DNA of 64,000 nucleotides from the NCBI GenBank assembly GCA_002633005.1, contig NMRA01000438.1, forward strand, positions 1 through 64,000, read 5' to 3'. A model generated the notes under the pieces. That model had not been told where the DNA came from and did not search any database. It saw only the letters and a list, made by a program, of their open reading frames with translations. The position numbers and the translations under genes are program-made. The DNA is from Phoronis australis (Eukaryota > Animalia > Phoronida). This document shows positions 15,653-62,200 of this stretch, piece after piece. How positions within the stretch are numbered: position 1 is the stretch's first letter; the number at the start of each line of letters is the position of its first letter.

Positions 15653-15760
15653 ACAAAGCAAAACCAACAGATTCGGGCACCTACACTTGTGTGGCTACGA
15701 ATTATATAAACGGAACGAAACACGAAGGGAGGCGGGATGTCAAAGTGACTATAGCTGAAG
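15653..15760 (+). CDS. Ig-superfamily receptor exon 5 (third Ig domain, C-terminal half)
   Basis: ttttttgcag acceptor and G|GTAAGT donor, phase 1-1. AKPTDSGTYTCVATN carries the DxGxYxC motif. Confidence 0.95.
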
Positions 15761-29100: not shown

Positions 29101-30318
29101 GACTTCCTCGACATCAACGAGAGACATAAAAATGTTCCTGACTTCCAAATCGAGGTCACGCAGTTTTTTGACTCCGGTACAAAGGAGAGTTCTATTGCCA
29201 TATAATTTGGGGCAGCCTTATAGGACCACATCTAACTTTCATAATAACACTTACGAAGTTTGTGGACACTAAAAAGAGACAAACTGCACAAGACCAACAG
29301 TAATACATGATTCATTACAGAAAAGTGTGACTATGGGTTACAATTATGACAAGATCTTATTTGCACAGCGATTGTGTAACCGTTGTTTTAAAAATTTTCG
29401 TTAAACCAAAAATGTCATGATCAAATACTGGAATATCCTCAAGAGGATGAATCAGTAGACCTATTCACCCCCAGAACTCAGCTTCTGTCAAATGAACCAT
29501 GAAGACATTTCGTAGGACAGAAAGGTGCCAGACAGCACTTAATGCACCCAAATACTATATTTATAAAATAAAAGAACAAAACCACTGCAATTCTACTCTA
29601 ATTCGACATTCGCCAAAAAATTGACACGAGCATGATTTGGTGTGATATTCACAATGACACGATGCGTGCAACCTCTTCACTCAATTTTTGCGGTTGAATC
29701 GACAAAGTCAATCCATAAATTTCTTGTTATTCAGCTACAGAAAGGCCAATAACAGTCTGGCAGACAGCCAAACCCGGTAGACGCGTCACATAAGACAACT
29801 CCTACGCTACCATTTGGTGCTTTGTTACCCCAACACCAAAACAAGCCTAAGCCAGACTGCGACTAACCCGTCATAATCAATTCACAAATTAATGCTTGTG
29901 GCTATGCCGCGATGCTGAAGAAAACCTATATGCTAATTTCTCTTATAGCGCATCCATTTTAGAAGTTCAAAGATGGCTACTATTTACTTTTCAATTTTAA
30001 AAACAGTCATTTTGGCTGTTAGCCTTGGATTTTAAAACTTGTAAACAGGCGTGTTGGTTTACGACCACAATTATTGCATCCAACATCTTCAGCCAAGTCC
30101 ATGAATAGCTAATGGCTCACTTCAATCGGTGACAGCATCATCAAGCCTTTGATGTGTCGAAGACTGTACTGGATACCCTGGGGTAAACAGCACAGGCTTT
30201 CTCGTCCACTGGCGTGCAAATCCTGTTAGCGTAAGATTTGCCTAATGACAGGAGCTAGTGAAGTGCACCACGGCTTCCAGCAAGATAGCTCTTCACACCT
30301 CCACCAACACTGCTAATA

Positions 30319-30510
30319 TCATCTACTGCTACTTTGTTGTTGTTCCTGGTTCACTTTAGATGTATTGTCTGTCCGGTCCCGATTTACCCAATCAGGCAAT
30401 GGCGAACTCCAGTCTGCAGGGGGTCTTCTTCTGTACTCCCATACGTCATTATCCTGCGCTGCTTTCAACCTCTCCAAACGCCGTTGTGTCTCATGTTCTA
30501 TGATATTCCT
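30319..30510 (-). CDS. C22orf39: C22orf39/UPF0545 homologue exon 3 (terminal)
   Basis: Minus-strand acceptor ttccag, phase 0. RNIIEHETQRRLERLKAAQDNDVWEYRRRPPADWSSPLPDW matches the family VW..R..PP.DW..PLP motif. Confidence 0.9.
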   Translation of the reverse strand, partial: RNIIEHETQRRLERLKAAQDNDVWEYRRRPPADWSSPLPDWVNRDRTDNTSKVNQEQQQSSSR

Positions 30511-31524: not shown

Positions 31525-31689
31525 CGCGTCGTCAGTGGAGTTTGTCTTGCGGTAACTGATGCAGGATTTATAGTCCTGCCACCACTTGTCACAGTCGAGC
31601 AACTTCCCAAACACGTAATACTGGTTTAACCGACCCATTAGGCATGTGCACTCGTAGTGTTCATCTTTATACATTTCACATGGACGGAT
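31525..31689 (-). CDS. C22orf39: C22orf39/UPF0545 homologue exon 2
   Basis: cttttcag acceptor and GCG|GTACG donor, 165 nt, phase 0-0. IRPCEMYKDEHYEC...LNQYYVFGKLLDCDKWWQDYKSC has the family's four-Cys RPCE.Y..E...C.....YY..G...C..W..D...C pattern. Confidence 0.93.
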
Positions 31690-33870
31690 CTGAAAAGACA
31701 GAATTACCACAAGTTCATTTTCAGTCATTTTTAAGTGACTTAAAAGCATGTTGGAGTTCCATCGACACGCACTTATGCGTCTGAAGTAAAAAAACTCCGT
31801 GTATGAAATATTGCAAAATCGGGCGATTTTTGGACAATCAAAATTAGAATCCCATCCCATAATTCAGTGTTCCAATCTCACCAACCTTTTTATGGTTTGC
31901 GATTTATCCAATATTGACGCCACCTGTTGGTGATTTCATGCTGCTTCAAGGATGACACAAAATACATTATTGCATACTGTGATGCATCCGCCTATCCGTT
32001 AAAAGGTCAAACATCAGTTCCTGTCGTATTGTTAGAATACACTAAAGCTCTGAATGCATACTTTTGAAACACTCACCTTTCAATCATTAATGATTTTGTA
32101 TTGTCTTACTTTTTGGCAAGATTCCTGCATCTACAGAACACAACCCTGCTTGCAAAAATTGGACGCTTAAAAAACAATTCCTACATGTATAAAAGCGTTG
32201 TGCAGTACAGTACACAAAGTATCAATCTGATCAGCCATTTCTGAGATATGGTGTTTTGAAGTTTGAAAAATATGAAATTTGTCAAGGGACTGCATAATAG
32301 TCGTCACAGGATGTGCCACCATCATATGCTGGGACTTCAGGACCTGTGTAGACAGTGAGCACTGTCTGCTCAGTAGAGACGGTGTAACTCCCATAGGAGC
32401 TTCATACGCCAGAAGTTTTTTTGGCAAATTATGCCTCAAAATGATTAAAAAATCAAAGTAATGTTGTTATAAGTACCTTTTGCGCATAGACGGACACAGA
32501 CAGGAGGCCGTCGATGTCTTTAATTCCTTCCAACTCGAACAAATATTACCAGTATCAAACTTTTTCATTGAGCAATCCTTCGTTCAGTTCCCAAAATCGG
32601 AAACTTTTTATAGTCATTTTTAACACTGAGCACCGTAGGTGGTATGACTTCATATCCCCTGGTGTGCGCAGTGTGCCAGCAGAGACGATGGTCATTGTCT
32701 ATAGGAGCCGTGCTGCTAGCATGCGGATCACTTTAGCGTCCAAACCAAATGACGCACTGAATTGGCATTTTTTTGATTGCACATCAGACAGTATTTTAGT
32801 GAGGCATTTTATACGACAGCTATTCCCAATTAAGTCATGTATCACAACATCTGGGTCGTGTCATCGTAGACGCAAGAATCATGTGAGTATGTTAGTGTGG
32901 CCACGTGCTTCCTTTGCACTGGATGACAATATCTCGCGAAATATTCTATTTACATTACATAATACACCCTTCTGGGCATGCCTTAAACAGGCCCCCGTCC
33001 CTGTTGCCCAATCTCGTTGCGGTCACCAGATATGTGTGACCTCCTCATAACTAGTGAGAACAGCATTTTTCAAAAATTTTAGAAAATGTGCATGTAATAT
33101 ACATCATTAGAAAGCTCTCCACGAGACTAAGAGAACGGTGGAAAAATTTTTTAAATCGGACTTGTGGTTCCGGAGAAAACGTCATTTTTGTGTCGAAATT
33201 TTTTATAAAAATTCTGTCAAATCGAATTTGCGAGTTTAAAATGTTATGGTTTCAAAATTAAGTAACCTAGACAGACATGTGATACAACATTTTAAACAAC
33301 TTTTTATGATAAATAATATGCCGAAAAAAACATTTTGATTGGACGTTCCTGTGCGAAGATATTGACCTTAAAAGTCAACATAGTCGACAAAGAAAAGTCA
33401 CAACATTCAATTTTGCAATTTCAAATTGACATAAAATAAGAATTACTCAAGGAAAAGAAACAAATAAGGTATCATTTTAAAGATTTTTCATCAGGAAATT
33501 TGAAATCTGATAATTGGTTGAGCAAATTATTGATATTACTTTGTGATTTTTTGTTAACATGCAATTTGCAACCGACTTAACTTTGTCAAAATCAAATACA
33601 TTAAATAAAAACTAAAGATAAACATCATTTCAAAAATGTATTGATGACAAGTATGATAAATAGAATAGTTTAATACAAATTTCTGAAAGACATATAATAA
33701 ATAGAACTTATTTAACATAAACTTTCCACAACCGAAGATCTTGTCTTGAGCCATCCAGGAATGTTCATGCTATGTACAAACAAGGACCTCAATATTTATA
33801 ATCTCAAAGTTGTCTTAAGTGATATGAGCACAAAAAGGAATGTAGGATGGACAAATAAATAAAGTTCTCA

Positions 33871-34081
33871 AGGCATCCTCAAGGAAGGGGGGCCAAACCC
33901 TTTCACTGACTACCGAAGTCAGCGGAGTACCTTACACAGATCAACTAGTGGCATCCTCAAGGAAGGGGGGCCAAACCCTTTCACTGACCAAGTCAGTGGA
34001 GTACCTTACGCAGACTTGTGGCGTCCTCAAGGAAGGGGGGCCAAACCCTTTCACTGACTATCGTAAGTCAGTGGAGTACCT
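33871..34081. repeat. Three ~65-78-bp tandem units with conserved hairpins, just downstream of the transposase stop
   Basis: ggcrtcctcaaggaaggggggccaaaccctttcactgac-[variable loop]-agtcagyggagtacct at ~33871, ~33950 and ~34020. Confidence 0.92.
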
Positions 34082-34098
34082 ATATATACAACATAGAG

Positions 34099-34209
34099 TT
34101 ATTCCAGCACTTCGAGGTCCCCTTGACCGAAGTCGTCCATCAACCGAAAGGTGTAGACAGCCTCATCTTCATCATAATGGATATTAAACCAGGATGGATA
34201 TCCAGGGAC
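34099..34209 (-). CDS. Transposase coding exon 2 (C-terminal half of Spin/Ssty Tudor-like domain)
   Basis: Minus-strand acceptor tattctttcag at 34211-34210, phase 0: VPGYPSWFNIHYDEDEAVYTFRLMDDFGQGDLEVLE*. Joins donor CAG|GTTAGT at 34480 across a 270-nt intron. Not in the ORF track. Confidence 0.9.
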   Translation of the reverse strand, partial: VPGYPSWFNIHYDEDEAVYTFRLMDDFGQGDLEVLE

Positions 34210-34479
34210 CTGAAAGAATAACATGATTCATAAACAATTTGTTGCTACGACATATAAGCATTACTAATTTGAACATTGTTACGCAAAAATGTTACCACAA
34301 CATGGAAATTATGCACAACACTTCAACAAACAAAGGCGACATAATACTATTAAACAAAAGGGTTAAAGAAAAAGGAAATAGCAAGGTAGGATACGTCAGT
34401 ACATGAAAATCAAGAGCATATTGCTTGTCAGATGTTGCGATTTGTTAATAAGCATTGCAAAAGCTCATTACATACTAAC

Positions 34480-37401
34480 CTGAGAAATAACAAAGCCATG
34501 ATACCAAACCTGGTCATCACCTTCATCAAACTTGTGCCGAACATTTTTGCCAACCAGGAAATTTGATGATGTTGGCTGCGCTGCTGACTTTGACTGCTTT
34601 ATCAAGGTTTTAACGTTCTGTGCCAGTTCCTCAGGCGACAAATTAACTCGACGTGTATTCTCCAGCTTTGTAAATCGATATGTTGTGGGGTCAGCAAGCT
34701 GATTCAGGACATACTTTCGAAAGTTCAACTGGGCTTTCAAAGCACTGGTCTTGTTTTTGATGGTTTTCAACCTTTTCAGTCGTGTTTCTACCTCTTCTTC
34801 TGTCTGCCACAGTCCCCAAACAATCATCTCACTAGTGAATTCCTCCAGCTGACGTAACTTCTTTGCTCTTGTCTCCTCCTTCTTTCTCTCTCTCTCTTCC
34901 ATTATCTCTCTTCTCCTTCTTCTGATTTCATACTCCCTCCTCTTGAACAGCTGCCTTGTTGCCCTCACGCGGCTACTGGCTCCATCAAAAAGTTTTGCTT
35001 TCTCAGCATCAGACTTGGTGTGCAACCACTGGTGGGTCTTGTTGTGGCAGTACATGACGTAGCTTTCTGCGCACAGGGTACTAACAGCCGGCATTTCCCT
35101 CAGAATTCGGTCAAAATGACCAAACACAGATTCCGAGTATTTATTATGCTTGGGTAGGCCGACTGTCTTCCTCCGGAGGTCTTCGAATTCATCGTCAGGC
35201 AGTGTGCACCACTTCCCACCTTGAAGGTGGTCGGCAAACAATCGCTGCACAACTGCCGATAAGGCTGGCAACATACATTCTAAAATCACCTGCACCTTGT
35301 CATCATGTTCCCATGATGTTACGAGACTGGCGAAGATAGGGCTGGTCTCTAGAGAGCGCTGGCTACAAAATGACATGACCAAATCTCCCAGCATAAAATC
35401 TTCCACCCTGGTGCTACACTGATAGATGAAATTCAGCACTTCCTCATAGTATGTCGAGGCATCTAGAATGTGTATACGTTTATCTTCAATGATGGTCCAG
35501 AGGGGAGAGGTGATTAGATGACAGATGAGACCAAGCGCTTTGCAGCCTGCCAGATACTCAGGAATATGAAGGTCAAACTTCACTGCTTGAAGAAGTCCAT
35601 TTGAGTCGTTGGTAGAGAGATAATTTTTGAGATATTCAGAAAGGAAGAATAGTGCAGCGGCATTGGAGAAAAGAATGTTGAAACGGTTTCCACGGTACGG
35701 TTCTATAGGCAAAGACCGAAAGCCATGGTTGGTCAGAAAATCTTGAGCAAAGACAGTAAACTCGTAGTGACAACCATTCTTCTCGTCAGCTCCTCTTGCG
35801 ATGGCCTTTGATGCTGTTCGAATGAGCCGTGATGTGCCAGATTCGGACGACCTCAAGAAAGATGAGTTGAAAATGGGAAGTGATTCACCAAAGAAACCTT
35901 TCTGGATTTCAAGTAAAGATGAAGATGCCGCCTCTGCCATGTGAACTAATGAGTGCAGACCACAGAAGAAATTGGAAATTTGGCTGACAGCCAACTGTTC
36001 ACTCTCATCCAGGGTTTCAAAATTTTCAATCATTTGTGGTAAGATGTCTTTGCGGTATTCAAACAGTAGTTCGTTAAATTTCATTTGAGTCGCAGCTCTA
36101 TCAGACATGGTAGCAGTGATGTTCAGCAAAAGTTTCTTTGTTGTTTGTGATGATGATGAGATTGATGCCGTTTCAATGTCTGCCAAAATTTCTTGAAATA
36201 CTTGAAGTGTGTTCTGGGACGATTTGGTGACAAGTTGGCGAAGACCAAGAGTGTACATGTCGCCAGCGACATCACTGATGTGAAACCCTTGGTACTTCTT
36301 GCCGAACTTTGATGTTTCGTCTGAAAGCAGGCCGAGAGGAAAAGATCCATCAGACTCAACAACCTCAGCAAGCTGTGACTGTGATAACAGTAGACGCATG
36401 ACATTCCAGTTGTTAATGGTCGACTTGCTGGGGAGATCGGATGCTTCCAAGCCGGCTAACTTTAAGACAGATGAGATCACATGAGGAATGTTTCCAGATG
36501 ATACATTTTCTTGCAATAAACTAAATACACATTCATTCATTTGGGTGCTGAACTGTCTCCCAGTTTTTGTGGTTACTATGTTGGTACCCTGGTTATTGGC
36601 TACTTCAGTTATCCATTCGATCTCCTGTTTGCTCTGATCCAGTTCTTGTTGCATTGCTTCAAGTGCTTTGTTATTGTCCTCCAACAACTTCTCTGTCTTT
36701 TCTTTTTGCTTCTCAATCTTTCTACGATTTTTTTTCTCCCTTTCATTCAAATACTGCACCTGACTTGATTTGCGTTTCAGTTTCTTACGATTACGTTGCG
36801 CCTGACTTTTCAAGTGTCTAACTTCTCTAGCTTTCTGGTGGTATTTCACTTTGAATGATTTTGGAGTTTGAGTTTCAAGTTCTTGGACTTTTCTTTTAGT
36901 TTCATGAAGTTCACATGCCAGATCATCAATTACACGCTGAAGTTCTGATGGCTGCAAAGTTGAGACGTGCGATGGCGTGGAGCGACCAGACGATGATGGA
37001 GAACGGGACGATTGTCGAGATGTACCCGGAGTTGAGGTACCAGATGACTTTGCAGAGACATCACGAGAAAAGGACAGAGTGGGTGTCCGAGAGACACTCC
37101 GAGACCTCGATGGCTGAGGGGTTGTCTCCAGTGATGTTGATGGCTGTGGAGTTATCTGACGAGGAGTCTGAGGGTGTTTTGGAATGTGAAAGTCTTTTTT
37201 GTTGAACTTTTTCAGATTCGCAAGTCCTTTTTTGTACCTGGAACTCTTGTTCAGCTTTGCAAATGTTGCGTAAACATCCTTTATGTTTGTAGCAAGCTCT
37301 TCTTTATTCACATTATCATGTTTATGAGCAATAGCATTAACAGTATCTGCAATACTGAATTTATTCTTTCGATAAATTGCAAGTACGTCCTTGATTTTCA
37401 T
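34480..37401 (-). CDS. DDE transposase coding exon 1 (974 codons; spliced product 1010 aa)
   Basis: 977-aa ORF with an S/T/P-rich linker and a coiled coil, then LLSDETSK (D361), MSDRAA (D434), FCGLH (CxxH), RGNRF and NKYSESVFG (E757). This is the DD..CxxH..E layout with a long insertion domain typical of the hAT/P/MULE/Kolobok group. Superfamily not assigned. Confidence 0.88.
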
Positions 37402-37782
37402 GGTTCAGGGTTAACTGCAAGAAATAAGAAGCAATGCAAGAAGCAGGAACAGACACCACAAAGGAACAAAAAGCGACAAAAGCAAGATTGTTAAGCATAG
37501 TGCTAACAGGTTATGCAGCACATGAAAATATAGTGTTAATAAACAAACACACCACAAAAGAAGACTGAGCAAGCATTTAAAGACCCACAAAAGCATATTA
37601 GTTGCCGAAACATGTAACATGGTTTAGAATGTCTTTCAGACAGTCATTGTTAAGTGTTAAAACAGGAAAAGCATGAAAGCGTTAAGCTAAATTCACTGTC
37701 AACCAAAGCTGTAGCAAACTCACCACACAACGTAATCTTGGTTCACAGTGAGGATTCTGAAAATAGAATAAGATACGTAATG

Positions 37783-38365
37783 TTTACCTCTGAACATTGA
37801 AGGCGAGGAATGAAATAAACATAAACATAAACTTTGATGAAAGTGTCAGTAATTTACTCACCACAGCAATTACCTCAGAACATTGAAGGAGATCGAGGAA
37901 CGAATTGAATCCAAACCGTAATGAAAGTTTTAGCAAGTTACTCACCATAGTAAATAACAATAAACACTACCACAGTGCAACAAAGGCATCAACATCAACA
38001 TGGAATCTGAAATAAAATTATATCTACATCATTGGAAATTTAAAAGTGACTGTTGTTCGGTTGTTTACTATAGAACACTAAAAGTGAAAATGAAATCAAC
38101 AGATAACTGAAGGTGGACAAAAGGGTGGGCCAAAGAGCTCGCACCCCCACAAGCAATGTTCCAAATATGTCATTTTTAGCAAAAGGCAACTATTTTATAT
38201 GTAAAACCTGCATTTAATTTTGAAATTTGTGGTTGGCCTCCTGCAACATTTTTGATCAACCACGTATAGCTGTGATGACACTTTGGAAATTACTCACCAT
38301 AGTAAATAAAAATAAACAGCATCATACAACACCATCATCACTGTCAACAGAACATGGAACCTGAA
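37783..38365 (-). repeat. Locally duplicated segments carrying minus-strand splice donors (putative multi-exon 5' UTR of the transposase)
   Basis: ttacctcwgaacattgaagg at ~37783 and ~37870; ttactcaccayag at ~37853, ~37938 and ~38290 (GGTGAGTAA on the - strand); acatggaayctgaaaata at ~37998 and ~38352 (acceptor-like on the - strand). Confidence 0.55.
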
Positions 38366-38733
38366 AATATATGAAATAGACATTGGCAGCAACAGTGGTG
38401 CTTCAGTAGACACTGAAATTTAAACTGCACCAATTACTTGGCTTAAAGACGGGCATTAATGCAAGTAAACGCACTGATGGATAACAAGAAATAATTGCAG
38501 TCAAGAAATACTCAAGTTTAAAATTCATTAAAAATTACCGTTAAGGTGCAGGCAAACTCCTTCATGAGCAAAAGAACAAAGAAGTTAATAGTTAAAGAAA
38601 AGTGGAAGAAAAAGAAGGAACTGAACTGAATGAAAGAGAACTTATAACAATGAAACTTTCTTATTGACTCAACTGTAAATAATTAACTTTTCAATTAAAT
38701 ACAACATCATGTGGGGATGACATTGATAATGAG

Positions 38734-39171
38734 TCACTTAGAGTCAGAGGTACTGGGTATACACTGTTCTGACATAAACGCAGCACGATATTTGTTTGGC
38801 AGTGTCTTGGGTGGTGGTGGTGGCATACGGTACTTCTTCACAGACTCCCCAACAGCATCAGGAGCTGAAAAGCATCGCCTGATGGGTGGAGGGGAGAGCC
38901 AAAGAGAAGGAGGCTCAGACCGTGTGTCCATGAGATCATTCAAGTCTGTGACACAAGTATGCCTGTCTGCATCACTGACCCCTTTTGGTCTCAGATAACC
39001 CACACCCGAATATGATCCTGCTTTTCCAAATATGTAAGATGAAGATCGAGAGAGGCTAGAACCAACTGAATTTACTGATAAAATGTAAGTAGAATCAGTA
39101 GAAGCAGGAAAGTAGAAGGATCTGGACCAAGAGTTAGAAGCAGAGTCTGATGAAACAGAAATGTGAGACAT
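38734..39171 (-). CDS. Ser/Pro-rich accessory or upstream ORF within the transposon (145 aa from the ATG at 39171)
   Basis: Open frame MSHISVSSDSASNSWSRS...RMPPPPPKTLPNKYRAAF, more GC-rich than its AT-rich flanks. No recognisable domain. Confidence 0.3.
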   Translation of the reverse strand: MSHISVSSDSASNSWSRSFYFPASTDSTYILSVNSVGSSLSRSSSYIFGKAGSYSGVGYLRPKGVSDADRHTCVTDLNDLMDTRSEPPSLWLSPPPIRRCFSAPDAVGESVKKYRMPPPPPKTLPNKYRAAFMSEQCIPSTSDSK

Positions 39172-40681
39172 CTTGATAGTAAACTGATAAATAGGAGTGA
39201 AATTATAAGAACAAAAAATAACAAAGAAAATAACTGGTTTGGTCCACAGCATCTTCCAACAAAGCTTACCTGGAAGATATAGACCAGGGTGAGATGTATG
39301 AATAATCTAGCAAACCTTAATTTTTTTGTTGAAAACTATATACTTGCCTGTGGTCAGAAAAAAGTTTATCGAAAGCATGTATATTTTTATGGTAGTGGAC
39401 TACAAAGTCTTGAAAACAAAGGGCTGTAGTAGAAATATGCAATTGTAATATTTGTTTAATCTAAATTTAAAATGTTTCCATTTTGTATCTTGAAATTCTG
39501 GCTAAACTGCCTTGGCCAAGAAGGCAACATATGGGTGTGGCCCTGTCTGGCAACAAGCCAATTCAACCCAAGTCTCAGTGGCTTGACCAACAAAAATGTG
39601 AGGCAAAATAGAAAATAAAACCTAAATATGAGAATCATTATTCTTACTACCAGAAATGATTGTTTAGTTCTCTTTTACATTGTGTTTTCATCAGGAAAAG
39701 TGCTTCAGTATTGTAAAACAAACATTCAACGCGATTCGCAGGAGCACCCCTAGCGGCAGTACCCGGAACTACGAAGTGAGTCAGAAAAACGCCCGATTGT
39801 CAGAAATCGACGAAGTGCTCATTAGCAACAAGTGTTTGAAATAGTTAAGTAATGAACCCTTTAGTGCGGAATACAATTCATTATGTTCGCAAATTATGCT
39901 ATATACCAATAAATTCAGATCGAAATTGAAGGTCGCGGGAATAGGCAACTTTTTCAACTTTTAAGTGCATGAAAGTGAAAACTACTTACATAATCGTGTT
40001 CGCATGAGTTCCTTCTATAAACTCACGAAGTTTCACGTCAAAATTCGAGAGTTTAGTCTTCTCCTGGGTTGAAAACCAAATAGCAGTCATTTTTACCGGC
40101 TTCCATTTTGCTCTGAAAAATCGGTGACGTCGCTGCAAAAAACTCGTGCAAAGTATTATTAAACGGATTTTGCGATAAAAAAAGACTATCAGATAAGTAA
40201 AACAACATATTATTTCATACTTTGCGATAATTTTTATTTACATTTATTATATTTTTGAGTGATTTTTTGCCGATTGTAATGTGCGAATTTTACACGGTGA
40301 CAGATACGCGAAGCGATTTGGTGACGTATGTTGTCCTCGCTATCATAACCCCCTACCTTTCCGTTTGATCTCGAACACATGGACATTAATGGAGTTCAGT
40401 TTCAATTCTGTCAACGGAATGAAAGAGTAGTTGGAACAAGGTTTTAATTTTTATAAATATGGTGTATTTGAGACATGCTCCAGAAAGATGGAGATAAGCT
40501 CCCTCTGCCGCCGGCGTTACACTCCCCATCTGTCTCGGGCTCGGCTCAGTGGTCTAGTGACGGTCTGGCAATGTCCTGAGCAAAATGAGCAGGAAATGTT
40601 CGGTTACACTTCATCTACATAGTTTCACAGAAGTCTGTCTTTTCAAATGAGCAGAAATTTCCAAAAAAATTAACGTATTAC

Positions 40682-40732
40682 CATCCACGAATCCTCTAAA
40701 CTTTCATTGTTTACTTTACCCGTTCCCGACAT
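40682..40732 (-). CDS. C22orf39: C22orf39/UPF0545 homologue exon 1 (MSGTGKVNNESLEDSWM)
   Basis: ATG at 40732 and donor ATG|GTAATA, 51 nt, phase 0. Splicing gives DSWM|IRPCE, placing the Trp just before RPCE as recalled for this family. Total 135 aa. Not in the ORF track. Confidence 0.8.
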
Positions 40733-40851
40733 TCGGAACACCTGTTGTGTACTACGTCATGCACGAAAGTGATGACGATGGGCGCAAGGAAGCAAATAAA
40801 CTGTCAGTTGACAAACAAGCAGTCTCGTTGACGGTACAAGCGCAGGTGAGT
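40733..40851. promoter_or_regulatory. Probable bidirectional promoter with a + strand first-exon donor (CAG|GTGAGT at 40845/40846) of an unidentified divergent gene
   Basis: CpG-enriched ~110 bp with CRE half-sites, between the - strand ATG (40732) and a consensus + strand donor. Followed by >20 kb of T-rich intron-like DNA. Confidence 0.5.
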
Positions 40852-43800
40852 TTTTGTTTGTTAATTGGGTTCTGATCAACTAAAAAGTTGTCCATACGAC
40901 AGCGTCAAATTAGACAAATAATCGGTAATAATCTTCCGTGACCAACTTTAAACCAACTTCCAAGTTCAAGATTGAAAACTTGTCTTTTTTGCCCGACTGT
41001 CTAGCGACCTGTGCGATTCACACACTCGCTTCTGACGATTGACAAAGTATAGTGACTCAGTCATATCGGGCAGATTCCTTGCGTTTCTGGTACTGTTGCT
41101 TATCATAGGTTTGGGAAGGAATCCCGCACAAAGAACACCATAAAATAGCAACCAATCCGTAGAGTTTTGTTCCCGTAGGTCAGTCCGTTTCTTGATAAAT
41201 ATTATAATCTCTCAGACTCAGGACACTAGCTGATATTGCCAATGTGGGAAGAACGTACTTTCTGATGCAAAGGTCTCAAAAATGGGACCAATGGACATTC
41301 ACGTAGGATGGAAAGAACCATTTCAAAAGTTGATAACTGTTGTTTATGCCATGCCAATGGTCAACGTCCTGGTACTTACACAAACAAACCTGTCCTTGTC
41401 ACAAGAAGCCTGTCGTTTGTCATTTCTTACCAGCCTTCCCATTTATGTGTATGTCCAGGGACGTTATTGGGATGGCCGGTTTTAAAAATCGACAGCTTGG
41501 ACAACGTAGCCAAGAGAGAAAAAAGATGCCCTGTTCAAGACCAGTGGCCTCTGCAGAAGCGATGGCTAAATGAAGAATTACAACTAAGTCTGATTAATAT
41601 TTTTTGAAGTTTAATAATAGATTTATTGAAACAATTAGTTGTTTTAGTTCGATAGATATTCAGGCATAAAGCGAAATCTCAAATTATTTCCATCTATTTT
41701 TATTGTAAATGTCACACTCACAGTCAGCAAATGCTGGTAGCCATGTTTTACAGTGGATTACCTCCTTGTCCTGTGACTCGTACAGAACTCCGGCATATGA
41801 CGAGTGTGAATCTCATGAATTTGGAAAACCACTTTTGGAATCCTAGATGAGTCCCTGGGACCTCCGTCATTGAGATTTGTTGGTCCGTTGTTCCCATTGG
41901 TTTGTCCACTACTTCCCATCAAAAGGTCCATCCCATCCCATCGGCACCCCAAGCTTCACTATTATTGGTTGGTAAAGGTCTACTATCTGAACTCTACACT
42001 TGTTCCTAGAAATCCTATGACATATTATGACTTCAGTAAACTATGCAGTTTCAATTGGGGTGTTTGTACAAACTTGCATGCACTTCAACACGTTTAAAGT
42101 CTATCTTTGTTTAAACACTGTCTTGTTCAGATTAGGAATGGCTCATATCTATTTGGAGTTGCTTAAAGTTTAAGAAACTCATGTCTGACCAATAAGCTGC
42201 ATTAGCTCATTGATCTGACCCAAGTGCCCACTCCATTTCCTGAATTAATTATCAGCTGGTTTTTGAGGAACGAGCAATGGTCCTGCATGTTGATATCTGT
42301 CCTAGGTTCCGACATAATCAGTTGCAGGCTAGAAATTTGGAAATGTAAGCTGAGGTTTTGACTAACTTGCAATTAGTCACACATGCGCGACTTGGGAATT
42401 CCGAGTGTGAGTCGAGTATTTTTACGCTTCATAATCCATAACCGATATAAATGGGGGCTATTTGTGTGAATCCGGTTATTTTAAAAATTCCCTTATAGGA
42501 CCTGTTGATGACTCGCCAAATCAATTTGAAATGAATAAACACACTTGACTCCATTCCTTTTCGTTAATTTGTTTTTGGCCTGCAAACTTTCGTTAGCTGG
42601 AGATGGAACCTGAATTCTACGTAATGACATAAATGTGACTTTATGGTTTTGTCCAGATTTCATGTGATAACTGGTCACTTTGAGTTCTGTATTTGGCATT
42701 GATTTGGTTCAGGCCCCTTTCTTCTGTAAGCTATGAGTGCGTGCGTGTGGCGTGCGTGCCTGCATGGGTGTGTCCAGGAGTGCATTTGTTAGGGCCCTTC
42801 CAGCCTAAGATACGGTTGGGCTCGAATTTTTGGCAATGTGGACCTTTTCCTAAACTTTTGTCTCGTTTTCTCGCACTTTTTTTTTCTGAGGCGAACCTGT
42901 TCGCTTACTTCGCCAACTAGGGGAGCTCGTTCGAGCTCCCCGAGCCCCCTGAGTGCGCGCATGTTCAGGCCCCGTTCTCCTGTAAAATTGTTGAAAAACC
43001 TCATGAAATTGCCTTAATCGGGTCAAAAAAATTACTCCAGACCTAATGATTAAATTCCCCTCAATGTCAGAATCCCCTCTGCTAGAAACTAAGTTTGGCT
43101 TCTTTATCATAACTGATGAGGAGTGATGACGGTGGAAGGAGGAGGGTTAATTTTGAAATGTGTTTCTCGAGGAAAGCTCGGAAGCGTGTTCATCATCTAG
43201 AAAAAAAAGCTTGAATGCTGAATCATTAGCGAAAGTGGCTACTTCTATTACATAAGTCAAGATTTTTCACCACATATTCTTTGCATTTATGCAACGTGCC
43301 TCTATTGACTTGATGTGTATTGTTCTGGCACTGATTTTCAGTGATATGATTATCCTGAAGGTCTACTTGTGTTTTTCTTGTGCATCCTAGTGCTGGGATC
43401 GTTTTAGAAAAACGTGGTTTGGTGAATTGACCCATGCGGCCTCAAGTCTATGGGTCATTTTGGAGGACATGAGCCATGTTGTTTTATCCTTTTTCCTTCC
43501 TATTTTAATGGCCCCGTTAGCCAAAGCTGGGCATCAGTAACAGATATGTGAAGGAAAAGATTCCCATCATAAGTCCCGTTTAGACATCAACTTTTGGCCC
43601 GACGCAACTGACCCAGAGCAAATTGACCCGTGTCAAACGTCCGTTTACACACACAACTCACTAACCGTGGCAAGACGGAAATTGCAGGCTAGAGAGACTG
43701 GATCGCACATGCGCAGGTTTACAAATGACGAGAGTTGCGTATGAAGGTCATTCCACAAGCGTAGTAGAGATGATCCTTTCCACCTTGCCCCAGTTTCGCG

Positions 43801-46800
43801 TTTAGACATATAATTGACACGGCGCAAGATGATCGGGTGCAAATTGCTCTACCTCAAAACTGGTGGCAAAAATTTGTCATCGCGGTGTCAATTTGCTCTG
43901 TGACAGTCAGTCCGTTTACACACTGGAACAACTCGTTCGTTTGTGTCAGCTGATCGTTTCAACTTTGTAATGTGTAAACAGCACTTTAGACACTACTGCC
44001 AGTATTCAAATTTTTAATTGTTATCCATGACTAGACTCAAAACTGAGTTTAATGAATGGATACATGCTGAAAATTACGTAATCTGTTTTGGTGCAGTCAA
44101 TTTTCTTGGCCATTGTTAGCCAGGGTCGATGACTCACTAAGAGATATTTCAATCTCAATTCTCTCACTTCATTTATTTTAAGTTCCAGTTGGTAAGTTCT
44201 CAATTCAACTTTTTCTGTAGCCTTTGAGATACCACCAGCTGTTGCTTTTATTCTGGGCTTCCAGTCACTTGTCTCCTTTGTGCCTATATGGATGTTTTAT
44301 GAATTTAAATCATGTGACTGGACATAGGAAGCACTGATGCAGTTTGTAGGGCATTAAGTTTGCGTGATTCTGTAGTTGTGGAGAGAAAACTTCACTTGTG
44401 ACGGAGAAATCAGAATACGGTTTGGTAGCAGCCCTTCATTGACACAAACTTGGTTGAAAACACGACTGTTAGTAGTTTTTGTTCGGCACAGAAATTGAAT
44501 TTTCTCCGTAAATCAGACTAGTCACTTCGGCGGTGGCCATTTTGCAAGTCTTTGATTTTAGGTGGTCTTGCGTGATCTCGCTTTTCTCGCAAGATATTTG
44601 CTCTGAAGATGTGGGATGGCAAACAAAGTACAGTGATTTCCTACAGAAATAATCGCCGAAGTTGTAATTTCCATTGGCAAAATGACGAAGTGCAATGTCG
44701 GAAATTGATAACATTTTATGGCATAACATTTAAAATCACTTTTCAGGCAATGAACTTGAAAAATATTTTATGTACTAGATTGCACGGGATATCTTCTTTG
44801 ACTGGTTATTAACTTGTGGTTATTATTATTTCTCCACGAACCACAACATTGGAGTTTTATTAAATTATAGACGTCTGTGATACTGAGGATCGTTAGCAGG
44901 TCCAGGAGCGTCATAGAAATCCATGCGGTTCTGAATACCCAGACGTTTAGGGTTTGCAAACTAAGGACTACCCCTTGTTCACAACAAAGGCAAATATGTG
45001 GCTTATTTCCTCTTGTCAAAACAGAGGGGCATTTTTTATTGGGCAAATTGGATATCAGGTTGCAACTCTGAACTTCAGTCCTTCTTTCAATGTTTTGTTG
45101 ACTGTGGCGTATCTTGGTTGGTAGTGTGTACTTCAAGGTTAGTAATAATTTTATGTTACGGGCATGTTGAGGTTGCTGTCGGGGGAACGTTTTGGAGGCC
45201 TTTTTAAACTTGTTTACTCTCAGGAATGTAAGCATGAGACAGAACGGAAAATCAAATTGTTGTATCATGGTCTTATTTGTAATGTTGATTCACTGAGCTG
45301 GTACATGTAGTCTACTGAATGCATAATTTGCTAACTAGTTGTGAACAAAATATAAGTTCCTTATAAAAAAGCAGTTCATGTTTTATTATGAATAGGAACC
45401 ACAAGTTATGAGCTGATGGTTCAAATACTAGGTTCACACGGCTGGTAAAAATGATGGCTGTTTTATTGACTAAAACAGTAGCGAATATACTAAAAGAGCC
45501 AAAAAGAGTGTCCGTGAAGGGATCATTTTGGCTAGGAGTTTGTTTCTTCACTACCCATGTTGCTTTTCAGCAAAAATTGATTTCAAAACATGTTCACTAT
45601 CTGCTATGAATTGATTATTAATGCTATAAACAAAGGCTTTTTCCCTAGTGGATGTTTGTCCTTTGAAGTGAGCCCTCTGGCTACGAAAGTGCAAGTGCGA
45701 AAACGGCAACAGTTTCAGGGCAACTCAAAACTGCCAACAAAGCAACAACAATGATAACACTTGTAACCTGGTTACATTATTAGTATTTTTAGGATCGAAA
45801 GGGCTTGGTGAGAATTCCAGCATTTTAACCAATATCTGAAAAGGGTAAAAGGTTTTACTAAAATTTTGAAATTGCCTTAATCAGTTCAGCAAGTTTGAGC
45901 TATCTTTCTTAATTGTTTAAGTGCTATCCGACTACGTATCAGTAACTTATCAATGTCTTGTTTATATGCCAGCTTTTCGATACTTTAAACTGAACTTTTC
46001 TTACTTGCTTTTTTATAAAGCTCTGACTTTCAGTGATTGCATTTTGTTTTCTGCTCAGTATCCATCGATTAATTACAAACTAATGCACATATAAAAAACG
46101 TTGGATAAGATGAAGCGTGAACATATTTAAACCTCAATCTACTGTAATTTCCTCACCGTAACAATGAGCAATTTTCCCACACAACAATCATTAAACGAAT
46201 TGATGATGACAGTAACGCGTCTGTATTCCAGATCTCTTGTGTCATACCTCAGTAACATCAGCTCTGATCACGTCACGTAATATTAATCCAGGTGCGGCAT
46301 TACCTGAATTACTCAAAGTTCCCAGTCTCTTCAAATATTGATCACAAGTCATCAGGCTGGCTGAGGTCTTGTAATGACTGTGTAATTCGTTTCTCAACAA
46401 TAGACCCTTGGTGTCATTGTCCTGTTTGTCTTTCCTGACTTCCATTGTTTTCAGGGATGTTTTCTTTCGGAATCCTTCAGGTTTCCGTTTGGCAGCTTAT
46501 GTGTTGTTCAAAGTGGGAAGCTGTATCTCTCCTGTTTATAACATGCTTTGATATTCAGTGTTGGCAAGGACAGGTAATTAATTCTTGGTGTTTGGAAAAT
46601 TTTAGTATGATGTAGTTCTGACTTTATTTCTGTTTCTGTTGACAAAGGACGTTATTACGTTAGAAAATTTCATTTGATCCATTCTTGTTGTTTTATTTAC
46701 CTATTTGTAGTTCTGAAGGTATGCAGGGATATTTATTGGCCGTTTTACCTGATATATGACAACTAAACTCACGCGTCAAAAAGTGGCCGAATTTGAAGAA

Positions 46801-47494
46801 TGTTTTTCCTGTTGAAACTATAGCTTCAAACTATTTCATGAATATTGCGACGTGAGAAACTCGTTAAATTCAATTAATGTTCACAGATTTGATTGGGATA
46901 TGAAGTCGGACGCAACACTAATTACGCGTCGGCCATAGCCACTAACGTGAAACTTTTAAGTTGGTACTGACGAACCTTGGCACTTACAGATTTAATGTAG
47001 GTCCTTATTAGCAATTCTGTGGTTTAGCCAGATGTCTAGACAAAATAGAAATCAAATCTGTAAAAATCAATGTTTTGTAGTCATTCATTGGCTCACGTGA
47101 TATAAATGGTCAAGATGAAATTTCAAATATGCGGTTACGGTTTTCTATTCATTTTCGTTTTACCTAATTGATGATTTTTTCAGAAATCATACACGTCCTG
47201 TTATGTGATAGTTTCTAATCAAAAGTAGCAATGTTTTGAAAAATTCTTAAGGTGTATAAATATATATTTTCAGTGAGACGAGGATAATATGAGGAAATAG
47301 TTTATCCCATTCAACCCGCCATCTTTTTGGTCACATCACGTATTTTTTAGAACATTGCGATTCACCAGCTAAGTCTACAGTTGTATAGGAATCCGTTCAG
47401 CAATTTCCGAGACACAACATTCAAGTTAGCCAAATGTAGACACTTTTCTAGAGTTCCACACAATGAACTCCATTCTGTCCACGGTGTAGTACGG

Positions 47495-47530
47495 TGTAAT
47501 AATGTGTAATAATGTGTAATAATGTGTAAT
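47495..47530. repeat. 10-bp tandem repeat (tgtaataatg) x3.6
   Basis: Directly visible. Confidence 0.9.
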
Positions 47531-50500
47531 TATGAACAACAATTCCCTGTAATAAATATAGTTCGAGGGAGGAGTCCCTCCCAAAAACAGGAAGGAAAAC
47601 AATGGCAATCAGAGATGGTACTGTGTGAGGCTTTAATGAGCCATAAAGTTAATTGAGCACTCCTGGTATTTAGGTATACTGTCCTGACAGTTGAATGGGT
47701 GGTTAGGTTGTTTTAAAACCCCCTGAAGCCTGTTTCATTTCAGCTCCTTGTAAAATCTCATTCTGTCAACCAGGAAGCAGATCTTGACAGCCCTGACTTG
47801 ACTATCATTTTGACCTCTGACCTGGTTATCCAGATGTACAAATTCATTGCTGGTTGGGCTATTGTGTTTAGATGGCGGACACTGATAGTGGCGCAGATGT
47901 CTGAACTGTGATGTTATTGTACAGTGGTTTCCCATGTTAGCTCTAGCCAGAAGTTTTCCTGTTTGGATTCATGGCAACAAAATCTTTGCAAACTCTTTGC
48001 TCCCGGGTAAGTTGTGTTGTGCTATTCCTGAGCAGTTTAAAAAAAAGTGTGGTCAAAGTTGCCAAGCTTTATTCTGTGTGATTTCATTCATTTTGTTGCC
48101 AAGTAAGTTTTATTTCTATCCATCTCTGCGAGGTCCTTACCAAAGCTTGACTGTGGCTCACAGGTTTGTCAACTTAACAATTTACCGTCATCCGCTTCAT
48201 AGTCTAAAAAAAGTTTGGATGACAATCATAAATTTCTGTTCTACTTTTTCTACTGACGTCAAGTGGCTGCGCTGGAACATGAGCAAAATATCTGCCAACC
48301 ACAGTTCCGCACCTGTCCATTGCAGTAGCTAGCTATGGACATGGACTTGCATTTAAACTTAGTTAACAAACTCAGACTTATTTCACGGTTTAGGACATCC
48401 CACGTTAATTTCAGTTTCAAATCCCGGTTTACAGATTCCCAGTTTCAGGTTCTCACAAGTCAAAAATCACGTTTCACGGATCATGAAAAACGTCCCTCCT
48501 AAAATTTCTGTTTCTTTTCCCACAATTCACATGGCATTGTAACTTACCATATGTTACTTTGTAAAGCAGGGAACCTGTCAATGTGCTGCTGGTTTATGTG
48601 CTAATTGCCATCAGCAGCAGTTCTTAGGCCAAGAAAAGTTTCTTTGATGATCTTGTTGTCCAATGGCGTATCTTCCTCCGTGGTGTTGTTTCCCGTATAT
48701 TTTTTGTATTTTCCTGTTTTTGGCATCCCATGTCACGTGAAACAGAATTTGAATCCAGGACTCACAGAATAAGTTGTTGTTTTCAACAAGTTTCTTTTTG
48801 GAATTTAACTATCAACTGTTAATGTTTACTTTAGTTAAATCATGAAATTGACCATGTTTCAAGCATTGCTGTGAATGCCCTTTAAAGCATGTGTCATAGT
48901 AGCAGCTATTTATGTGGCTTGAACACTGCTGTTTTCATTCGAAAAACTTTGTGTTGCTGAATCTCAGTTTTCTCACTGAGATTGAAATTGAGCACATCAG
49001 GAATGATGGAGTGCTGTCAGTGGCAATGCTCTGCTAAGTCTTGAAGCTGAGACTAACTGTTCTGTGTTCTTGATTAATTTTTTTCAAATGTCACGGTAAA
49101 AAGCCTCCAGTTTGGGACAACCTTAAAAATTTGAGACATAGAAATTCAAGTAGACATCGATTTTCTTGATTCTGACGATTGGTACTTGAGTGATTTTGGT
49201 TTCCCTCTTTTTCTCAAATTTTGGACCCTCATAGATGACAGTAGTCTTGTACAGGCATCCTGCATTTCGATTACCGGTTTTCTTCACTGAATTTAGGCAC
49301 ATGAGATTCAGACTGCTGTTGGCACTAAACTGTAAAGGTGGCATTGACGTTTAAAAGGTTGAGATCGCACTGTCACAATTGATATATCAACCATTAAGCA
49401 AATTTGCGTAGAGGCTCAAGAATTTGAGCACAGATGGGGGTCGGCTGTAAAGGACTGAAGAGAAGTCAGAACACCAAACTTTAAAAAGTATGAGACTGGA
49501 TTCCAGTTAGTTGTATTGTGTTGTCTGGGTAACTGCTAATCCCGTCATGCTCCTGTTGTGTCCACACACAGTCTATCCTAGAACAACTTGCACTAGTGCA
49601 ACTTACCCCTCTTTGAGTAGAGCGTGCACGCAATGACCTATCCCATTACTAGGGTTAGGCAGAAGTTGTTGCTCTGTGCGTGACAATGAACACCTAATGC
49701 CAATATGACGCGCAAGAGAAAACCCGTCTGTACGTAACCGCTGATTATGACTTCCGCCCTTCCCCACTTTTGCAGCCACACAGTTTTTACATGTGGCGCA
49801 AGTTACCTTAGAACCAGTAACCCCACCTGGATAATATGGAGCAAGTTGTCATAAGTCGGGTAAGTTGCGCTACTTTAAGTAGCGTTCAGACAGCACTCAA
49901 ACCTAGCGACAAGTGACAACTCATTCCAGAAGTAACTTCCAGGAGTAATGTTCGAGCAGTAACTTGTTCAACAGTAAGTCTATAAGTGGAGGACACTTTA
50001 ATGTCATGGATGAGGACAGCATTTAATTACATGCTTTCTGCTGGTTACACATGGTCATTCAACTGCCATCTGGTGGCTTGACAACATGGTGCAGGTTGTT
50101 GACATTAGTCCTGGTATTTTAGTTAAAGGTTCTTAACGATTTGTTATGCACATTTAATCTGCCTCCAAAAACTATTTTCTAACTTACACGTGACTGTTTT
50201 TGACGGGCGAGGGCTCTGGCTTTGTTATTTCTTTGGTTTGGCCATCATGCTGTCAAATTGCCAGTATTGTATGAGTGAGGTTTTCAGAACTTGTCAATAT
50301 ATCGGAAATATCCAGCATTGTAAAATGTCCACGAAAAAAAGATCTTGTATTTAATCTTTGTCCGTTCAGCGTATGTTGTGCTCGTCAGATCAAATGAAAG
50401 TTGCTTTTGTGCTCTTCCAAGCCTGACGAATTGAATGTTTGGTGGCTTTATGGAGTACGGTACACGCCTCACAACCCCAGCCACCTCCTTGATATTGATG

Positions 50501-53500: not shown

Positions 53501-54633
53501 CAATTTCAAATAAAAATAATTGCTAAAACTACCGTTTTCTTATTTTTGTGGACTTCTTACGTTGGTGTGAGTGTATGCAATTTTTCAAAATGTGACCTGA
53601 TCGTATGGTAACAGAACTTGAGCTTGGCAAAACATTGTTTTCTAATAGTCCTTATCATTGATGAAAAACGAGAAAAACAAAATTCTTCTTGTCCACCATA
53701 CTGTGTCCTAAAGAACATTTGGTAAAAGGTAAATATTCTCCTGTTTGGGGTTGCCAATATTGCTTACGTCTAAACTTTGGTACAAGGTCCAACCAGTTGA
53801 GCAAACTGGCTAATCTTGTGATCAACATAGGTTGGTTGATATTTTTGTAAAACTTCAAATCTATTTTCAAGCTCTGCTTATTAATATGTAGCATGGTATC
53901 CGATATGCCCAAAACGGCCTGCTTCCGTTCTTCAGAATTGAGAAGATTCAATTTCGCGTTGAATTTCAACTTCCTAAACTTTTGAGACCTTCCCAAACTG
54001 TAGAATTTTTACTGTAGTGAGATTTTACCAGTGAATGGTAGCTCTTCAGCCTGCTCTGAGTGGTCATGAGCCGGATTGTTTGTGATTCCCTGCAAGGGAA
54101 AGCAATTCAAATGTTTTAATTTTGTATGGTGTAAGGGGCTACACCACATTCAGTGACTTCATTGGTTCCTTGAAGCCCGCGATATTTTAATGTGCCAGAG
54201 TGGAAATTTGACCGCATTCTCAGACTGGCTAAAACGCTAGCTTTTTCGCCAACACTTTCACCAGAAGCAAATGGTAGTCATGCGTCACTTTTGTTAGCAC
54301 TTTGCTGGTGGTTTGAGTTACCCCAAAACTGCTGGCGTTTTAGCATGCGTTTTTTTTTTTTTACCAGACCGCTTACTTCAAAGGACACGCGTGTGCAGGG
54401 GAAAGGGCCCCTTGTTTATCACCGCATTAATGACTGGCTGTTCTGACATTAATTTTTGCTTTAAAAAACTTGGGTGGTGTTGAAACCAACTAACTGCTGA
54501 TAAAAATGTTGGTCTTCCCTTCTGTCAGGCTGAAACACTCAAGCCAAAGAAACTGGTAGTGTGTTTGCCATTTGCCGAGTAAATGACTTTTTACTCAATC
54601 TTTGACCCTGGACTAAGTATGTGACAAATTTCT

Positions 54634-54789
54634 CTGGGCAGAGTTCAATAACGCTAGGACCTTGCTAAAGGGCTAGACTTCACGAGATTACGTGAGGTAT
54701 TGCCATGTATTTTAAATGAGAACGCATGATTTTGGCTGGATTTCAGCGAGGTCCTAGTGTAGGTCCTAGCATTATTGAACTTTAGCCTG
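54634..54789. mobile_element. Short MITE (~155 bp) with ~20-bp TIR core
   Basis: agttcaataacgctaggacc on the left vs ggtcctagcattattgaact on the right (one mismatch). Confidence 0.7.
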
Positions 54790-59200: not shown

Positions 59201-62200
59201 TTCGGACCAAAATAATCCCCAAAATAACACTTATTCATTTGAAGGGCTTCTAACACTGCTGTGATTGATCTCAATTTTTAAAAAAAATATCGTCTGTTTA
59301 TAGCCATTGTACAGAACATGGTTGTGGCACAGCATAATTTTGGCACTGTGGATCATTTATTTTTTATATGAGAAAATAAAATTTCAGCAGTCTACCGGAT
59401 CATGTCTTAAATTGGTACGATTTTAGGGTACAAAGGAAAGACAATATTTCTCTGTAAGTTGTTTTAACCAACCATTGAACCATTGAATTTTACATACTGT
59501 TGTAGTATGTAATTGGATAGCACGTATTCTTGAGTTACCAGTGCAGTATTGTGACTCAATGTGGTCTTAATTAGGTCAGTGGGTGTGGTCTGGGTTAATT
59601 GACATCACAGTGGTTTATGGTCCAAGTTATTCAACATGTGGTGCTCTCCATGACACAGTTCAGTCATGTGTTAAGAATGTTGACTGACTATGTCTGAAAC
59701 TCCAGTGTTTGTGACACTGAGAGTGGCTGGGAAGGTTTGAGTAAAAGGCTCTAGGTTGAGTTCCTGTCGCAATCTCTGGGTTTTTTCATATTTTATACAA
59801 TCAGGGCATGCGTCTATTGATTGATGGTATTTTTATCTGTCCCTTATCATGCATACTGTAGTTAGTACTGTACAGTAAGTATGTAAGTATAAAAATATAT
59901 TTTGGGTTCTGTCAGCGTCATTTATTTGCTTAAGTTATCACCTTACAGTGTTCATTGAATGACCATTTTATTTGTGACTGTTGACCTGTAGCACACTTAA
60001 ACTCTTGAAGTTTGTCAGCAGCAAAGCTTTCGCTCAGCCTCTGAACTATCAATACCCTGATGTGTCCCCTCTTAGGAATTCAGTTTGATCACATACTTTC
60101 CTGTTGGGATTTGTTGAACCCATCCATTCTCAATGGAGTTTGGTCACAACCATTGCAAAGTTCGGAGACCTACTGCAATTTTTATTTTTGGTACCTCTGA
60201 AAAACAGGTTGCTGACAGTTTTTGGTTGTGTTCGCAGGGTGTAGGACTGGCCTAATATGTAAATCTTCATTCAGACAGGTTTCAGTGCTTAAGTCAAGTT
60301 GTCAAGGAGATGTGTGTTTAGAATTTGAGACAGCATTTTTGTGATTCGAATATCGTGATATTAGCTCAGACATTAGTACATCTATTTCATTTAATAACTT
60401 CACCTCTTGTTTTGAGTGTATGCAATTGACAATATTCTGTAGGACCAATTTTTTAATGATTCCGTCTCTCAAATGAGTTGGCAATGTGATGTATTGGTTT
60501 TAAATGAATGTATATTTAACAGCTTAGTATTTAAAATGACTTATTCTTATTAAAATGGCACAGGCAAGAAACTGAATTTCGAGTCGCAAAAGTGGGGCTT
60601 CTTTATTATCATAGGCGGGCCCCCTGCACCTAGGCCACCTTCCGGCGGAGGCACCTATGTAGAGGGCCTCACGTTTGAGGCCCAAATTCAATTTTTGCCT
60701 GTGTCATTTTAAAATAAGAATAAGTCATAAGCTGTTATTTGAAATTTATGTTTATATTTACATGCACATACATCCTCATGCCATAGATTCTGCATAGTTA
60801 CGCTTCTCGTTTCTTTTTCAGTTTCGGCAAGGCTTCCATGGTACATATTAGACCAGGAACAGATATTTACAGTAGCTGCCAGACTAGTCCAAGACATTAA
60901 ACACACTTGGGGCAAGTGATATAACCACAAATTATTTCCCAAAAGCTGTGGTCTGTGAATGTTGAAACCACATCAAGTTGAAAGATCAGAGGGCTGAGCT
61001 TTGATGAAGACATTCTGTTGTGAGGCAACACTGAGGTTGTATATTCAGTGGCAGTGAAGGTGACATGGCCAGGATTTGACTGAGTCATTCTCAGCATGAG
61101 GGCTTCCAGTGAGAAGTTGAGTGTGAATCCACAGATCAACAGGTTGTCCAGAGAAACATGAGCACTCAGAGATTGTAAGTACATTTACTGGCCAGAACAT
61201 TTACTGCAGTGCTGTAGTGGTAAAATTAGAGGTAAGGAGGTGCCCAAAGCCCACCGTATCACCTCGAGCACTGAACGTAACTTACCTACATTCAAATGCC
61301 AAAAGGTGGTTGGCTGCATCTACGTGCACCTACGCCCTACCACAGCACTGATTTCCTACGCCCTACTACAGCATTGATTTACTGGCCAAAACATTTACTG
61401 ACCAGAGGAATTTTGTAGGATGTGTTGTTAGGGTAAGGTTCTTAGTTTGTGGGTATTTCATAATGTACTGGGAACACTTTTTGTGCAAGGGTCTGAGATT
61501 GGGAAGGGTTGTGGTTGGGGGTTGTGCTGGGGTTAGGGTTAGGCAAATGGGACTTCAGGATACATGCATGTTAGAAGGAAAAAATGGAAATATCCTATTT
61601 GGTACAATCCTGCATCGTACTCACTCAAAGTGCAATACAGCCATGCTGAAAATGATTGTGTGCTTTAATAACTTGATTCAAAACAGTAAGGTTAAGTCTA
61701 CAGGTCTTAAATAATCTTGAGCAACTTTCAAAAAAGTGTAAGAACAGTGAGAGCTTCGACTTGGAATTTTACTCGTTAACTCACAGTGAGCAATAGGCAG
61801 GTATTCCCCAGAGTCTGTGCTGCCACCTCTCCTCTTGGCTGGCAGACGAGTGACCTCCTCATAACCTTCTGAATGCTGTTTCCTGGAGCACATCTACTGT
61901 GGAGTTTATTCTTCATTTTTAACAAACGAAGTTGTTTGCCAGAGCAATTGCTCAAACTGGAAGTACACCTGTAACCTCTTGAGGTGCCTCTCATTATGTG
62001 CAAAACGTATATTAAGAAATGTGAATTTGGTGGCTTAGCCAGGATTAAGAATTATTTGCAGAAAATCTTCCGGACATGCCAATGCCTAACTGAACAGTAG
62101 CCACTTCACAGAATATCACATTGTCCACTCTGATTCTACGGTATTTACCCACAATGCTACTCCCTACACAGTTGGACTCTACTTCGGTGCTTCACTAATC

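Follow-up and report, generated by a model that had tools for sequence, protein, structure and literature searches.

The window, a 64,000-nucleotide stretch of Phoronis australis DNA, contains a full-length transposon of 7,291 bp, classed as hAT-like, in the first intron of a C22orf39/PANTS-like gene. Its transposase ends in a Spindlin-type Tudor domain that is predicted to bind H3K4me3. We tentatively propose that this domain steers the element to gene starts through that predicted binding, as a soft bias, a reading to which we give somewhat less than an even chance. A single site proves little, and the family to which the element belongs renders the targeting question directly testable.

The transposon spans positions 33052 to 40342, with 15-bp inverted ends of the form TAG...CTA and a 7-bp target duplication. 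This end pair ranked best among 300,000 candidate pairs scored on inverted matches and duplication; duplication lengths of 4 to 9 were allowed for the window and 28 loci, and only 7 was asked in later searches. The inverted ends match at 12 of 15 positions and the flanking duplication is exact. Independently of the end-pair scan, the summed depth of contigs is 9,392 on the element side of 40342 and only 44.8 beyond it, and behind this position 4 DNA contigs and 9, 10 and 7 RNA reads continue into mixed flanks. A preliminary description of this DNA had tentatively placed the right end at 40325, which is 17 bp short given the inverted ends, the TCATAAC duplication, the depth drop and the mixed flanks. 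The left GTCACC word that would pair with an end at 40325 lies in host DNA, 30 bp outside the element. The proximity to exon 1 reported in that description stands, and its figures (~356 bp to the donor, ~400 bp to the ATG) are corrected to 339 and 390 bp from the element end, with the divergent donor at 504 bp. The element and its borders are as follows.

33052..40342, minus strand: full-length hAT-like DNA transposon, 7,291 bp, oriented as the host gene (end pair, contig depth)
40328..40342, minus strand: 5' terminal inverted repeat, at the end closest to exon 1 (end-pair scan, depth)
33052..33066, plus strand: 3' terminal inverted repeat, 12/15 matches to the other end (end-pair scan)
40343..40349, no strand: target-site duplication TCATAAC, exon-1-side copy (end-pair scan)
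33045..33051, no strand: target-site duplication TCATAAC, other copy (end-pair scan; end of the X1 and X2 left-flank contigs at 33051)

The minus-strand ATG of the host gene is at 40732 and its exon-1 donor at 40681. RNA reads splice from 40682 to 31692 in X6 (n = 3) and X7 (n = 4), with none listed for X5, and host exon 2 (31525-31692) matches the Pfam PANTS-like family with an E value of 4.9e-13; we take PANTS to be C22orf39. On the opposite strand, 8 X5 reads splice from 40845 to 60822 at donor 40846, with none listed for X6 or X7, and the exon that they join occurs once within the window, at 60822. The host and divergent joints therefore define two oppositely pointing first exons within ~165 bp, and both are transcribed. 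The ATG, the exon-1 donor and the divergent donor, all proposed in the preliminary description, are confirmed by these data. CpG o/e is 1.34 over 40650-40950, which covers the two-way promoter; RNA read ends examined there for transcription start sites formed no pile-up. The element lengthens intron 1 of the host gene from 1,691 to 8,989 bp. The corresponding features are listed below.

40682..40732, minus strand: exon 1 of the C22orf39/PANTS-like host gene, coding part (donor 40681, RNA reads)
31525..31692, minus strand: host exon 2, Pfam PANTS-like (Pfam, RNA reads)
30319..30510, minus strand: probable host exon 3, coding part (sequence only)
40733..40845, no strand: compact two-way promoter region and divergent plus-strand first exon, donor 40846 (RNA reads, CpG o/e)
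60822..61175, plus strand: exon 2 of the divergent transcript (start from RNA reads; end tentatively placed at a donor-like site)

The first intron of the divergent transcript is ~20 kb long (40846-60821). Its second exon is rich in stops, and the 5' UTR would therefore cover at least two exons.

The state of the insertion site was assessed from contigs of X1 and X2, two runs of a single sample from which the window itself may derive. Flank contigs in X1 have depths of 41.6-44.8, versus 13.7-25.9 for three element contigs identical to the window copy. The left-flank contig ends at 33051 in both X1 and X2, and in both the right-flank contig has 23 unlaid letters ahead of 40343. These 23 letters and the 7 of the duplication make 30, which is the overlap expected with the left-flank contig for an assembly word size that we presume to be 31. 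Contig depth and geometry thus point to one insertion-bearing and one empty allele. We infer this one-allele state rather than read it directly; no contig spanning the filled right junction was seen. The insertion looks recent and polymorphic.

The element belongs to an abundant family. Joints 34185-39087 (depth 1,351) and 34355-38789 (depth 2,537) correspond to abundant internally deleted derivatives, and the summed depth of the family's ends runs in the thousands, versus ~43 for the flanks. As a rough guide only, depth not being copy number, the genome would contain a few coding copies and at least about a hundred ends. The RNA/DNA depth ratio of the element ends, a poor measure, is 2.0-6.1 and falls within the 0.75-7.1 range of three other repeats. 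Few RNA reads cover the transposase at 36765-37215; all their first mates are minus-strand, opposite to the X6 reads of host exon 2, hinting at antisense RNA from some element copies.

A 978-codon open frame, joined to a last exon across a putative 270-bp intron, would encode a transposase of ~1,010 residues. None of the RNA joints listed crosses this Tudor intron. It follows an ISQ motif and appears common to many homologues whose open frames stop there. The two exons are as follows.

34480..37401, minus strand: main transposase coding exon, which at 34480-34557 encodes the first half of the Tudor domain (open frame, motifs, fold)
34099..34209, minus strand: final exon of the transposase, encoding the other half of the Spin/Ssty Tudor domain (Pfam; preceding 270-bp intron inferred)

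The transposase motifs occur in the order D-D-CxxH-E, with D362, D435, C481xxH484, R574 and E758 in P0001 numbering. The core was modelled with a pLDDT of 95, and Hermes is found in the top 10 Foldseek ranks, with E values of 1e-6 to 2e-5 but TM-scores of only 0.19-0.36. The element shares with the hAT superfamily (Hermes, Ac/Ds, Tol2) this Hermes-like fold, the D-D-CxxH-E motifs, short inverted ends and non-autonomous deletion derivatives. It differs by a 7-bp rather than 8-bp duplication, by the C-terminal Spin/Ssty domain and by the absence of a Pfam BED finger or hAT dimerisation domain, neither of which was detected in P0001 and eight homologues at E values up to 1. As judged from these sequence features, it is best described as hAT-like but outside the canonical hATs, because of the duplication length and the two missing Pfam domains. 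The Repbase hATs with 7-bp duplications are presumably hATw and share that duplication length with the window element. That Repbase holds hATs annotated with such duplications is stated in excerpts of PMC4455052. The duplications of hATx-6 are 8 bp long and it carries both a BED finger and a dimerisation domain, which places it in a different group (PMC8721813, excerpts).

Transposase homologues made up 155 of 7,989 scored candidates, and the named ones are from bivalves, abalone and sea urchin. We searched for further members with resolvable insertion sites. Viral contigs yielded 0 matches to a 23-base end pattern and no relative in a family alignment search, and a single-protein scan of metagenomes found no relative; a metagenome scan recovered 68 loci of the family. 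A weight-matrix scan of these 68 loci for single ends was discarded as unspecific (17 wrong- versus 12 right-orientation matches). End-pair searches over 28 and 24 of the 68 loci resolved two distinct elements, L015 and L044 (identical to L045), the end pair of L018 being ambiguous. With flanks of only 210 and 29 bp, L015 was left unscored. L044, on a metagenome contig, encodes a C/F/Y/W cage and lies in mostly CpG-poor DNA with decayed transposon remains.

Most sites came from G001, a bacterial MAG that holds animal contigs bearing Delta, Piezo and Death-domain genes with introns, together with family members. These animal contigs appear sponge-like. G001 is a 20-Mb bacterial species-representative genome, and its many animal contigs (that of L070 and others) amount to host contamination. 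The end pattern had 63 matches in G001 versus 20 for the control; we excluded 10 matches, all on a multi-megabase contig judged to be bacterial. Of 40 regions fetched, 2 had a partner end with a duplication. In total, eight sites in G001 combine TAG ends with 7-bp duplications, one of them having TAA at an end. The preliminary description had proposed defining the duplications across the family: these are 7 bp at the window element and at its relatives' sites, 11 of 11 in all, and the TAG ends are the same in L015, L044 and the G001 copies. The 11 duplications form a loose palindrome, approximately Y-T-W-N-W-A-R.

The C-terminus of the transposase is a single Spin/Ssty repeat, and the best PDB match of the last exon is Spindlin1 repeat 2 (E 3.5e-10). 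A profile built from 19 homologues matches 99 of 122 collected proteins, 29 of them at full length. The window copy has an F/Y/Y/Y cage at the positions of Spindlin1 F141, W151, Y170 and Y177, and D at those of E142, D184 and D189. It thus shares with Spindlin1 repeat 2 three of the four cage residues (F, Y170 and Y177) and acidic residues at 142, 184 and 189. The three tandem Spin/Ssty repeats of the Spindlin family were not found in the transposase, which differs from Spindlin1 in having one repeat, a Tyr in place of W151, a fusion to a transposase and a binding activity that is only predicted. In Spindlin1, the cage residues hold K4me3 and the acidic residues anchor H3 A1-R2, and D184A causes a ~90-fold loss (PMC3967050, excerpts). 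Across 45 complete Tudor copies (43 distinct), the four cage aromatics are present in 28, D184 in 37 and D189 in 32. Position 142 is acidic in only 15, which, like the Tyr in place of W151 here, speaks against targeting by the reader. The retention of D184 and D189 favours H3K4me3 over a generic mark, and the domain is predicted to bind H3K4me3. Distinct cages are carried by some sub-families, W/Y/Y/L and C/F/Y/W (P0093, P0096, P0104, L070, L084; L028, L035, L044). These natural variants offer a series for testing mark specificity.

H3K4me3 is an established mark of active promoters. In the mechanism that we consider, a recent, likely polymorphic hAT-like transposon would have inserted in intron 1 beside an active two-way promoter. 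H3K4me3 would cover the insertion site, as the active state of the promoter suggests, and would be bound there by the C-terminal Spindlin-type domain. This binding would tilt landing towards gene starts as a soft bias rather than a strict rule, and the weak palindromic preference noted above would pick the exact base. The premises on which the preliminary description had based its fit to reader-directed targeting hold and are strengthened, in that the end lies closer than thought, both first exons are transcribed, the insertion looks recent and polymorphic and the reader residues are conserved across the family; the conclusion itself stays tentative. For a genome of 300-800 Mb with 25,000 genes, both figures being assumptions, 3-8% of random sites would fall within 500 bp of a start, and the window site was picked after the fact, so that one insertion is only suggestive, as that description had already judged. 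On the empty allele, an unrelated high-copy repeat also lies in intron 1, ~0.7-1.1 kb from exon 1, which argues against a bias due to the reader. This repeat (~32250-32700) has by far the highest summed depth of three unrelated high-copy repeats in the window, the others being at 42630-43080 and 30000-30250.

The comparison of family sites with gene starts, also proposed in the preliminary description, gave a divided answer in G001, with three of the eight sites near a putative start codon and four in repeats. The former lie upstream of the putative start codons of a Delta-like gene (13 bp), a sulfatase gene (448 bp) and a Death-domain gene (610 bp), a proportion with P values of 0.04-0.32 under assumed base rates of 10-25%. 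In-frame stops are present in the Delta-like and sulfatase genes, two of the three, and tolerance rather than targeting may therefore explain these sites. The latter are inside nested inverted-repeat elements (C13), a tandem repeat, a 534-bp MITE and a dispersed repeat. One site, that at 448 bp, belongs to both groups and two of the eight sites belong to neither. Two of the three start-proximal copies have W/Y/Y/L cages and the third is non-coding; C13, the sole G001 copy known with an F/Y/Y/Y cage, is the one within nested inverted-repeat elements. The copy 13 bp upstream of the putative start of the Delta-like gene is a derivative that keeps the Tudor exon (L084, 8695-9173).

CpG content was also compared. 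The mean CpG o/e of the eight empty G001 sites exceeds that of a non-random background of ~0.77 Mb of G001 fetched around pattern matches, with P values of 0.024, 0.059 and 0.086 at 250, 500 and 1000 bp; this background excludes four regions of another contig that looks bacterial. With seven sites the values were 0.007, 0.027 and 0.055, and the eighth site raised them. The signal arises mostly from adjacent repeats. As a promoter proxy CpG o/e failed in both directions: the top 'island' (C55) proved to be the 534-bp MITE, and C58, at 13 bp from a start codon, is CpG-poor. The empty site of the window has an ordinary CpG o/e of 0.73, a value reached by 29% of 549 windows. Taken together, the eight G001 sites give only a weak, mixed signal, and with the one on a metagenome contig they show no clear-cut targeting of promoters.

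The reader might instead act on the donor, at the element's own active and CpG-rich ends, or recognise another mark such as H4K20me3, the site then reflecting an ordinary open-chromatin bias of hATs; we regard this as possible, if on the doubtful side. The terminal 350 bp of the window element indeed have CpG o/e values of 1.91 and 1.46, four of the eight relatives' sites are nested in repeats, and the RAG2 PHD, reportedly acting on the substrate side, counts in the same direction. We know of no reader domain in Tol2 or Ds. Both are enriched near start sites and in H3K4me1/me3 regions (PMC4825651, excerpts), and in Spindlin1 Tudor 2 the same cage also accommodates H4K20me3 (PMC5348760, excerpts). 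A role on the donor is harder to reconcile with the chromovirus integrases, in which a C-terminal reader directs targeting (as cited in excerpts of bioRxiv 2021.11.30.470311), and another mark with the conservation of D184 and D189, which grip the H3 N-terminus, in 37/45 and 32/45 copies. It is unlikely that chance and tolerance account for the site, the element having met a suitable 7-bp word in a permissive intron with no part played by the reader: the assumed 3-8% base rate, the many copies in the family, the post hoc notice of the site, a duplication that fits the loose family consensus and another repeat in the same intron all agree with this, but three of eight independent relatives' sites are near putative start codons, and the window copy is apparently on one allele only, which would have left little time for selection to filter its position.

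Transposon-reader fusions have already been described, including hAT-chromodomain elements, and the chromodomain gypsy integrases, sponge hAT-chromodomain and cnidarian PHD fusions likewise place a histone reader on a mobile element, its suggested role being to direct insertion or to escape silencing (bioRxiv 2021.11.30.470311, excerpts). The proven case differs in targeting H3K9me heterochromatin. The string 'spin' is absent from the main text of that preprint. Among the matches listed by title and abstract, no paper reports a Spindlin-bearing transposase, subscription journals and Repbase Reports being outside the scope of this search. Start-site enrichment of piggyBac and MLV is due to chromatin tethering through BET proteins (PMC4786924, excerpts), and Mu is reported to co-localise with open-chromatin marks (PMC2774946). 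Chromatin tethering is thus shared with piggyBac and MLV, if our proposal holds, but these borrow a host reader whereas the window transposase has one built in. More broadly, a widespread marine-animal hAT-like family might aim at active promoters with its own Spindlin-type H3K4me3 reader, a generalisation that we put forward as conceivable but rather less than probable. Such a family would be the mirror image of the chromodomain retrotransposons, which aim at heterochromatin. The cage variants F/Y/Y/Y, W/Y/Y/L and C/F/Y/W may then aim at different marks.

Most explanations of how cut-and-paste transposons pick gene starts invoke open chromatin or host proteins that they borrow. A built-in H3K4me3 reader, if true, would be testable by single cage mutations and could provide a one-protein marker of active promoters, and the family would be a source of promoter-proximal mutations in marine invertebrates. 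With many copies and natural cage variants, a single assembly and a single ChIP data set could answer the question. Should there be no bias, the site would be an ordinary intronic insertion, yet the conserved reader would still call for an explanation.

Several other features of the window were observed. At 61850-61866, 17 bp are identical to the empty insertion site; a match of this kind occurs for 220 of 4,360 random sites, so that it is probably unremarkable. Immunoglobulin-domain exons of another plus-strand gene are located at 12004-15933. The 5' part of the element (37780-39340), part of which is retained in the abundant deleted derivatives, contains a 190-codon minus-strand frame (38734-39306), for which a Pfam search returned no match. 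A donor-like word is repeated three times there (~37850, ~37935 and ~38290), an arrangement suggestive of a second gene or of several small exons upstream. Finally, three tandem copies of a 70-78 bp unit are found at 33866-34081, directly downstream of the transposase stop codon.
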